Shown here piece by piece: positions 13,301-14,299 of a stretch of DNA of 64,000 nucleotides. Both the position numbers and the translations under genes were made by a program. Positions within the stretch are counted from its first letter, which is position 1. Every line of letters begins with the position of its first letter. The notes beneath the pieces were generated by a model that ran no database searches, was not told where the DNA came from, and saw nothing but the letters and a program-made list of their open reading frames with translations. This DNA is from Escherichia coli (GTDB taxonomy: Bacteria > Pseudomonadota > Gammaproteobacteria > Enterobacterales > Enterobacteriaceae), in assembly GCF_044324875.1 (NCBI RefSeq), contig NZ_CP172185.1; one strand, 5' to 3'.

Positions 13301-14299
13301 ATGATGCAGGATTTGCGTCTGATATTAATCATTGTTGGCGCGATCGCCATAATCGCTTTACTGGTACATGGTTTCTGGACCAGCCGTAAAGAACGATCTT
13401 CTATGTTCCGCGATCGGCCATTAAAACGAATGAAGTCAAAACGTGACGACGATTCTTATGACGAGGATGTCGAAGATGATGAGGGCGTTGGTGAGGTTCG
13501 TGTTCACCGCGTGAATCATGCCCCGGCTAACGCCCAGGAGCATGAGGCTGCTCGTCCGTCGCCGCAACACCAGTACCAACCGCCTTATGCGTCTGCCCAG
13601 CCGCGTCAACCGGTCCAGCAGCCGCCTGAAGCGCAAGTACCGCCGCAACATGCTCCGCGTCCAGCGCAGCCGGTGCAGCAACCCGTGCAGCAGCCTGCCT
13701 ATCAGCCGCAGCCTGAACAGCCGTTGCAGCAGCCAGTTTCGCCACAAGTCGCGTCAGCGCCGCAGCCAGTGCATTCAGCACCGCAACCGGCACAACAGGC
13801 TTTCCAGCCTGCAGAACCCGTAGCGGCACCACAGCCTGAGCCTGTAGCGGAACCGGCTCCAGTTATGGATAAACCGAAGCGCAAAGAAGCGGTGATTATC
13901 ATGAACGTCGCGGCGCATCACGGTAGCGAGCTAAACGGTGAACTGCTTCTTAACAGCATTCAACAAGCGGGCTTCATTTTTGGCGATATGAATATTTACC
14001 ATCGTCATCTTAGCCCGGATGGCAGCGGCCCGGCGTTATTTAGCCTGGCGAATATGGTGAAACCGGGAACCTTTGATCCTGAAATGAAGGATTTCACTAC
14101 TCCGGGTGTCACTATCTTTATGCAGGTACCGTCTTACGGTGACGAGCTGCAGAACTTCAAGCTGATGCTGCAATCTGCGCAGCATATTGCCGATGAAGTG
14201 GGCGGTGTTGTTCTTGACGATCAGCGCCGTATGATGACTCCGCAGAAATTGCGCGAGTACCAGGACATCATCCGCGAAGTCAAAGACGCCAACGCCTGA
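13301..14299 (+). CDS. zipA: Cell division protein ZipA
   Basis: Starts [26 protein letters not shown] (N-terminal TM anchor), then a long P/Q-rich linker and a C-terminal FtsZ-binding domain. The ORF-track start at 13250 is an upstream extension. Confidence 0.9.

Follow-up and report, generated by a model that had tools for sequence, protein, structure and literature searches.

The zipA locus and its product

The window (the whole stretch of 64,000 nucleotides of Escherichia coli DNA that was analysed) carries the cell division gene zipA on its plus strand, between cysZ and ligA (Table 1). The same gene order, cysZ-zipA-ligA, is found in the RefSeq records for K-12, 042 and others. The coding sequence runs from an ATG at 13301, where the product begins with MMQDL, to a stop codon at 14297-14299. 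The 332 codons that had been counted from this methionine in the original prediction, made from the sequence alone, agree with both the list of open reading frames and the RefSeq CDS in a record of 100% identical sequence.

The longest open reading frame at this position opens further upstream, at a GTG at 13250 (13250-13300, plus strand), which lies 17 codons 5' of the ATG and would give a product of 349 aa. The ATG at 13301, and not this GTG, is supported as the true start by the RefSeq CDS in the 100% identical record, by the alignment to the NCBIfam equivalog model and by the full-length ZipA of PDB 9iue, whose residues 1-328 are aligned to residues 1-332 of the window protein.

Judged by its sequence, the window protein is ZipA beyond reasonable doubt. 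All the defining features that could be tested were found, namely the equivalog match, the C-terminal domain, the layout of anchor, charged region and P/Q region, and the position beside ligA. The septum_zipA equivalog TIGR02205 is matched with 416.5 bits (cut-off 119.65), with residues 4-324 covering model positions 1-284 of 284. Furthermore, the Pfam family ZipA_C (PF04354) matches residues 198-321 (E = 3.2e-46), and the solved C-terminal domains of PDB 1f46, 1f47 and 1f7w align from residue 189 or 193 up to residue 332. Binding of the FtsZ C-terminal peptide and a requirement in division would be expected of the window protein as well, given that its binding domain is 100% identical to that of the experimentally studied K-12 protein. 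The sequence itself is already known: the 999-nt gene shows no difference, at 100% DNA identity, from the one that encodes WP_001317975.1 (332 aa; for example in E. coli WP8-S18-ESBL-07, NZ_AP022261.1), which is annotated in RefSeq as cell division protein ZipA.

Table 1. Features of the zipA region in the window; residues are numbered as in the 332-aa protein unless stated otherwise
Feature	Position	Strand	Basis and remarks
cysZ	12310-13071	-	ORF list; neighbour of zipA
zipA CDS, 332 codons and stop	13301-14299	+	ORF list; RefSeq CDS WP_001317975.1; TIGR02205; PDB 9iue
N-terminal transmembrane anchor, residues 7-28	13319-13384	+	Hydrophobic run in translation; limits from PMC6904479; identical to K-12
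Charged region (acidic/basic), residues 29-85	13385-13555	+	Limits from PMC6904479; identical to K-12
103-aa ORF, not a gene	13436-13747	-	ORF list; no Pfam match; open run expected from composition
101-aa ORF, not a gene	13518-13823	+	ORF list; codon shuffles; no Pfam match
101-aa ORF, not a gene	13527-13832	-	ORF list; codon shuffles; no Pfam match
P/Q-rich low-complexity linker, residues 86-189	13556-13867	+	Composition; residues 86-185 in K-12 numbering
8-nt direct repeat CAGCAGCC, left copy	13616-13623	+	Bounds the 111-nt deletion of the 295-aa allele; right copy at 13727-13734
Codon 120, CGT (Arg)	13658-13660	+	Alignment; CAT (His) in K-12
First 12-nt unit GTGCAGCAACCC (V-Q-Q-P)	13673-13684	+	DNA alignment to K-12; absent from K-12
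Second 12-nt unit GTGCAGCAGCCT	13685-13696	+	Alignment; identical to the single copy of K-12; matches the first copy at 10/12
66-aa ORF, not a gene	13702-13902	-	ORF list; codon shuffles; no Pfam match
Codon 152, TCA (Ser)	13754-13756	+	Alignment; CCA (Pro) in K-12, at its residue 148
48-aa ORF	13775-13921	-	ORF list
C-terminal globular FtsZ-binding domain, residues 190-332	13868-14296	+	Pfam ZipA_C; PDB 1f46, 1f47, 1f7w; identical to K-12
ligA	14370-16385	+	ORF list; neighbour of zipA

Composition of the P/Q-rich linker

In the 328-aa ZipA of K-12, the P/Q domain occupies residues 86-185, which are intrinsically unstructured and serve as a flexible tether that links the transmembrane helix to the globular domain (PMC6904479). 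This P/Q domain has also been argued to be more compact and more restricted than a free coil, under the conditions of that paper (PMC6904479). The domain limits used here for the window protein follow the same source in the N-terminal part, where the hydrophobic run of the anchor, read from the translation, lies at residues 5-26.

The linker of the window protein, residues 86-189, is essentially the segment 13550-13870 that had been pointed out beforehand as low in complexity and rich in P, Q and A. With 29.8% P, 25.0% Q and 15.4% A, these three residues make up 70% of the linker, against 17% of the other 228 residues (Fisher p = 7e-21), and the residue entropy is 2.78 bits in the linker versus 4.11 bits in the rest of ZipA. 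At the DNA level, the linker is 39% C and 14% T.

The linker had also been described as repetitive, and in this respect the description holds for the motifs more than for the arrangement. The named motifs are all present, with QPVQQP at residues 103, 123 and 127, PQPEQP at 136 and APQPV at 153. Repeated 4-6-mers in the linker protein, on the other hand, are only modestly more frequent than in composition-matched shuffles (p about 0.01-0.03), and the excess is not significant when the four residues that are additional to K-12 are removed (p about 0.07-0.10). Tandem Repeats Finder, run over 13300-14300, returned no array at a score of at least 30, and the other direct repeats in the linker DNA are short, dispersed and 67-92% alike. 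The linker is thus of low complexity through its biased composition and contains a single local near-duplication; it is not a true tandem-repeat array. The possibility of a tandem-repeat contingency locus was considered and rejected, there being no array, just two adjacent 12-nt copies that match at 10 of 12 positions.

Overlapping reading frames

Five open reading frames of 48-103 aa in other frames overlap the region 13436-13921, and the view that such overlaps are spurious, taken in the original prediction, is supported by codon shuffles, by the Pfam results and by the substitutions in the zipA frame. That one or more of these frames (for instance the minus-strand frame 13436-13747 or the plus-strand frame 13518-13823) should be a real overlapping gene is scarcely credible, even though 101-103 aa is long for a random sequence. 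Linker DNA with 14% T has few stop codons, which accounts for long false frames: when the codons of the linker are shuffled, the longest stop-free run averages 54 codons in one of the five other frames and 85-117 in the remaining four, and the observed lengths are attained by 4-99% of the shuffles, depending on the frame. No Pfam match was found for the other-frame products at E <= 1. Moreover, the sites that vary are mostly third codon positions when read in the zipA frame, and insertions and deletions that are in frame for zipA would alter the overlapping products arbitrarily. These frames are by-products of the T-poor base composition, and gene callers and ORF scans will always yield long false frames over this C-rich, T-poor linker.

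Length difference from K-12 ZipA

The zipA gene of K-12 MG1655 comprises 987 nt and encodes 328 aa (WP_001300494.1), which is the reference length that had been given, as an approximate figure, in the original prediction. Alignments of both protein and DNA show that a single in-frame block of 12 nt, or four codons, explains the difference between 332 and 328 aa. At the junction GTGCAGCAACCC|GTGCAGCAGCCT (13673-13696, encoding PVQQPVQQP) the window reads CAG CCG GTG CAG CAA CCC GTG CAG CAG CCT GCC, whereas K-12, with GTGCAGCAGCCT alone, reads CAG CCG GTG CAG CAG CCT GCC. Both mismatches between the two 12-nt copies of the window are synonymous changes at third positions. The placement of the gap is ambiguous, with nine equivalent positions from 13673-13684 to 13681-13692, because the block is flanked by an 8-nt identity, GTGCAGCA.

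Besides this block, there are 11 nucleotide differences between the window and K-12 over the 987 aligned positions, two of which alter the protein. The anchor, the charged region and the FtsZ-binding domain of K-12 MG1655 ZipA are identical to those of the window, and all three protein differences (the four extra residues of the window, R120 in place of H120 and S152 in place of P148) fall in the P/Q linker. The small in-frame length polymorphism that had been suspected in the linker is thus borne out as the single 12-nt block accompanied by two linker substitutions, and the window protein is identical to reference ZipA neither in length nor in sequence. In practical terms, residue numbers taken from K-12 ZipA are off by four after about residue 123, both here and in about two fifths of E. 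coli genomes.

Frequency of the two lengths among E. coli genomes

The frequency of the two forms was estimated by searches against 5,426 complete E. coli genomes. The whole gene (13301-14299) used as query gave a match in 5,425 of them, and in an evenly spaced sample of the resulting ranking the matches changed from 999 nt to 987 nt about 42% of the way down. A shorter query of 201 nt from the linker (13570-13770) returned 2,382 records with at least 95% identity and the same length, 3,043 records at 90-95% identity with a 12-nt gap, and 72 records that align over less than 80% of the query. The exact 45-nt junction with the single copy of K-12 is present in 3,041 records (56%). Taken as a whole, linkers of the 332-aa length occur in about 2,300-2,380 of the 5,426 genomes (about 43-44%).

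With regard to the versions of the longer form, the exact 45-nt junction of the window was found in 1,994-2,026 genomes, including O157:H7, and strain 042 also has this form of the junction. Other versions of the first copy among 332-aa alleles read CAACCT (JCM 5491) or CAATCC (AW1.7). The 332-aa form is one of two major natural alleles of E. coli, ordinary and not a peculiarity of one strain, and the window allele is the main version of this form, which about 43% of complete genomes share. The strains named are presumably spread over several phylogroups, namely A for K-12, B1 for O121:H19, E for O157:H7 and D for 042. A search for literature on natural length variation in the ZipA linker returned general papers on ZipA and FtsZ, and nothing on a 328/332-aa polymorphism.

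The same searches gave some minor observations. Among the matches of the whole-gene query, two come from records that bear a plasmid label. One genome contains the gene twice, and a single one of the 5,426 genomes classed as complete gave no match to zipA, an essential gene. A further substitution, Q107P (CAG to CCG at codon 107, window 13619-13621), is apparently present in about 190 genomes including 042 (NC_017626.1), a count deduced from matches of the junction query through an exact 28-nt word; the ZipA of 042 apparently carries Q149K in addition.

Other linker alleles in E. coli

Two of the 72 poorly aligning records were inspected. In EM10-18-28 (NZ_CP063476.1), an in-frame deletion of 111 nt leaves a ZipA of 295 aa, and in PCP06021 (NZ_CM129877.1) an allele of the 328-aa type has lost 75 nt in frame, with a 4-nt microhomology, to give 303 aa. 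Each deletion was found in one of the 5,426 genomes, and both genes are annotated as intact zipA. The two deletions do not account for most of the 72 records, among which further linker-length alleles probably exist.

A gain of sequence is seen in EcN_Sk (NZ_CP172017.1), where GTGCAGCAGCCT occurs twice as a perfect 12-nt tandem duplicate (373-396 of that gene, equivalent to window 13673-13696). Among the 5,426 genomes, EcN_Sk alone has a perfect duplicate, and without the additional 12 nt its zipA is identical to that of K-12 over all 987 nt (100%). The duplicate is either an independent recent duplication or a polishing or assembly error in that assembly. The rare alleles of 295 and 303 aa, together with the EcN_Sk duplication, show that the linker still gains and loses in-frame pieces.

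Assemblers and polishers sometimes err at short near-repeats, and the perfect duplicate of EcN_Sk, confined to one genome, could itself be such an error. As an account of the extra 12 nt of the window, however, an error of sequencing or assembly within repetitive DNA is hardly conceivable: the same exact 45-nt junction was recovered from 1,994-2,026 complete genomes that had been assembled independently, the two copies have two mismatches and are thus no simple stutter, and the reading frame is preserved. For the window allele, an artefact is effectively refuted by these approximately 2,000 genomes with the same junction.

The insertions and deletions seen, which measure 12, 75 and 111 nt within E. 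coli, and all the differences between species are, every one of them, multiples of three. Phase-variable on/off switching by frameshift was likewise considered and rejected, every indel seen being a multiple of three and the downstream domain remaining in frame. Natural isolates thus tolerate linkers that give total ZipA lengths from 295 to 332 aa, which lends some support from natural variation to the view of the P/Q domain as a flexible tether.

ZipA linkers in other Escherichia and in Citrobacter

ZipA sequences for comparison were taken from one scan of species-representative genomes. The other Escherichia proteins have the same domain architecture as the window protein, and the copy number of QPVQQ(P) varies at about residues 123-132 there too, with more insertions and deletions elsewhere in the linker. 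Escherichia sp. MOD1-EC7003 (321 aa) has one unit at the site (QPGQQP, ending in CAA), E. albertii (331 aa) has two units of 18 nt, of which the second has diverged to QPVPQS, the genome named "E. coli" SCPM-O-B-8794 (320 aa) has two units of 18 nt (QPVQQP QPVQQP), and Escherichia sp. E1V33 (326 aa) has three units of 18 nt. The units of these outgroups therefore have an 18-nt period (QPVQQP) in one to three copies, whereas the two units of the window are 12 nt apart. In Citrobacter species, ZipA measures 340-343 aa. The differences in length, within E. coli as well as among Escherichia species, all fall in the linker.

The copies also carry a pattern at their synonymous positions. The window, SCPM-O-B-8794 and E1V33 all have CAA at the end of the first copy and CAG at the end of the last; E. 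albertii has CAA in the first copy, the second being too diverged for comparison. As an observation apart, the zipA of SCPM-O-B-8794 (NZ_JAATUR010000016.1) is 53-67 nt from E. coli alleles and 20 nt from E1V33, and this genome probably represents a non-coli Escherichia lineage under an E. coli name.

Variable sites at codon positions 1, 2 and 3 number 3, 2 and 13 in the linker and 1, 0 and 13 in the rest of zipA within E. coli; within Escherichia, the corresponding figures are 15, 16 and 52 in the linker and 7, 1 and 64 in the rest of the gene. Constraint on the linker sequence is relaxed while the reading frame is maintained, and non-synonymous evolution in the linker is several times faster than elsewhere in the protein. 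Comparable low-complexity spacers, which connect a folded domain to an element for binding or anchoring, are the disordered linkers in other proteins of cell division, for example the C-terminal linker of FtsZ. Spacers of this type drift in sequence but retain their composition and approximate length, although the FtsZ linker belongs to a different protein and its composition differs from that of the ZipA linker.

Direction of the length change

The direction of the change was assessed from a base-by-base sample of 13 E. coli alleles. EcN_Sk, whose background is that of K-12, was left out of the comparison of allele diversity in spite of its 332 aa. The five alleles of the 328-aa type are 0-3 nt apart and all have T at zipA nt 234, while the established 332-aa alleles sampled are 5-15 nt apart and keep at nt 234 the C of all four outgroups. 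The 328-aa length is probably a deletion, given that the 328-aa alleles are near-identical and share a derived single-nucleotide change, and that the outgroups have one to three copies. The K-12 length would then have arisen through a single deletion between the 8-nt repeats GTGCAGCA. On the strength of these comparisons, it seems probable that 332 aa is the ancestral length in E. coli and that the length of K-12 is a derived deletion.

The main counter-evidence to a deletion is that MOD1-EC7003, the closest outgroup sampled, is single-copy. Its single copy retains CAA, the state of the first copy, whereas that of K-12 retains CAG-CCT, the state of the second copy, which fits independent contractions in the two lineages. 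In addition, recombination within zipA could blur the pattern of alleles; those of 328 aa, for instance, include both R120 and H120.

The opposite direction, in which a K-12-like ancestor of 328 aa underwent a 12-nt tandem duplication that spread and then acquired two synonymous changes in one copy, is possible but doubtful. The single unit of MOD1-EC7003 would agree with it, and a duplication at exactly the same spot does occur, as the perfect duplicate of EcN_Sk on a K-12-identical background illustrates. Such a history nevertheless calls for three events (the duplication and two substitutions) where a deletion calls for one, and it does not sit well with the greater diversity of the established 332-aa alleles (5-15 nt, against 0-3 nt) and their outgroup state at nt 234. 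Moreover, the pattern of CAA in the first copy and CAG in the last is common to multi-copy outgroups, and the contrast between CAA in MOD1-EC7003 and CAG-CCT in K-12 points to contractions that were independent. If the 332-aa length is ancestral, as is preferred here, a side point is that the laboratory reference K-12 probably carries a shortened form of ZipA.

Mechanism and functional meaning

The reading that is favoured overall, with a probability of roughly 0.9, is that the window carries a natural 332-aa allele of the ZipA tether, in a linker that is prone to slippage and in which only in-frame changes survive, that the variation is close to neutral and that 332 aa is probably the ancestral length. 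The DNA of the linker is C/G-rich, dominated by CAG and CCG and full of short direct repeats, and insertions and deletions would be expected there because of these repeats. They may arise by replication slippage or by deletion and duplication at microhomologies. Only in-frame changes would survive, since zipA is essential and the FtsZ-binding domain lies downstream.

A tether works by its length and flexibility rather than by a fixed fold, and four residues in about 100 amount to roughly 4% of its contour length. From the known role as a tether and this small fraction, the four-residue variant can be assumed to be, most probably, selectively neutral or nearly so. A small probability is kept for an effect of length on account of the compact, restricted PQ region reported in PMC6904479.

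Under such an effect, selection would adjust, lineage by lineage within E. coli, how far the ZipA tether reaches, and with it the distance or dynamics between membrane and FtsZ filaments. This seems improbable. The two alleles do stand at intermediate frequencies, about 44% and 56%, but these are equally explained by inheritance within large clades. Linker lengths do differ among Escherichia and Citrobacter species, and the PQ region has been described as having a restricted, not free, range of motion (PMC6904479); against this, four residues are about 4% of the linker, E. coli is viable with alleles of 295-332 aa, close relatives have 320-343 aa, and the linker evolves several times faster at non-synonymous positions than the rest of the protein.

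A wider version of the same idea, in which the 328/332 dimorphism and the recurrent gain and loss of QPVQQ across Escherichia would together reflect selection on tether length, with lineages setting the spacing or dynamics between FtsZ ring and membrane differently, is very improbable. If it were true, the K-12 reference on which almost all studies of ZipA rely would be derived and shortened, and unrepresentative of about 43% of E. coli. The significance of the length difference is small: the discrepancy is real, yet the gene is well known and the allele a routine one that has already been annotated.

Sequences flanking zipA

A scan for sigma-70 promoters over 13000-14450 returned no promoter-like site. 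Between zipA and ligA, a consensus terminator scan of 13000-14450 missed a G+C-rich hairpin that direct folding shows at 14328-14352 on the plus strand (AACCCCCG...CGGGGGUU, followed by a U run). With a folding energy of -14.9 kcal/mol (z = -3.2), this hairpin resembles an intrinsic terminator after zipA.
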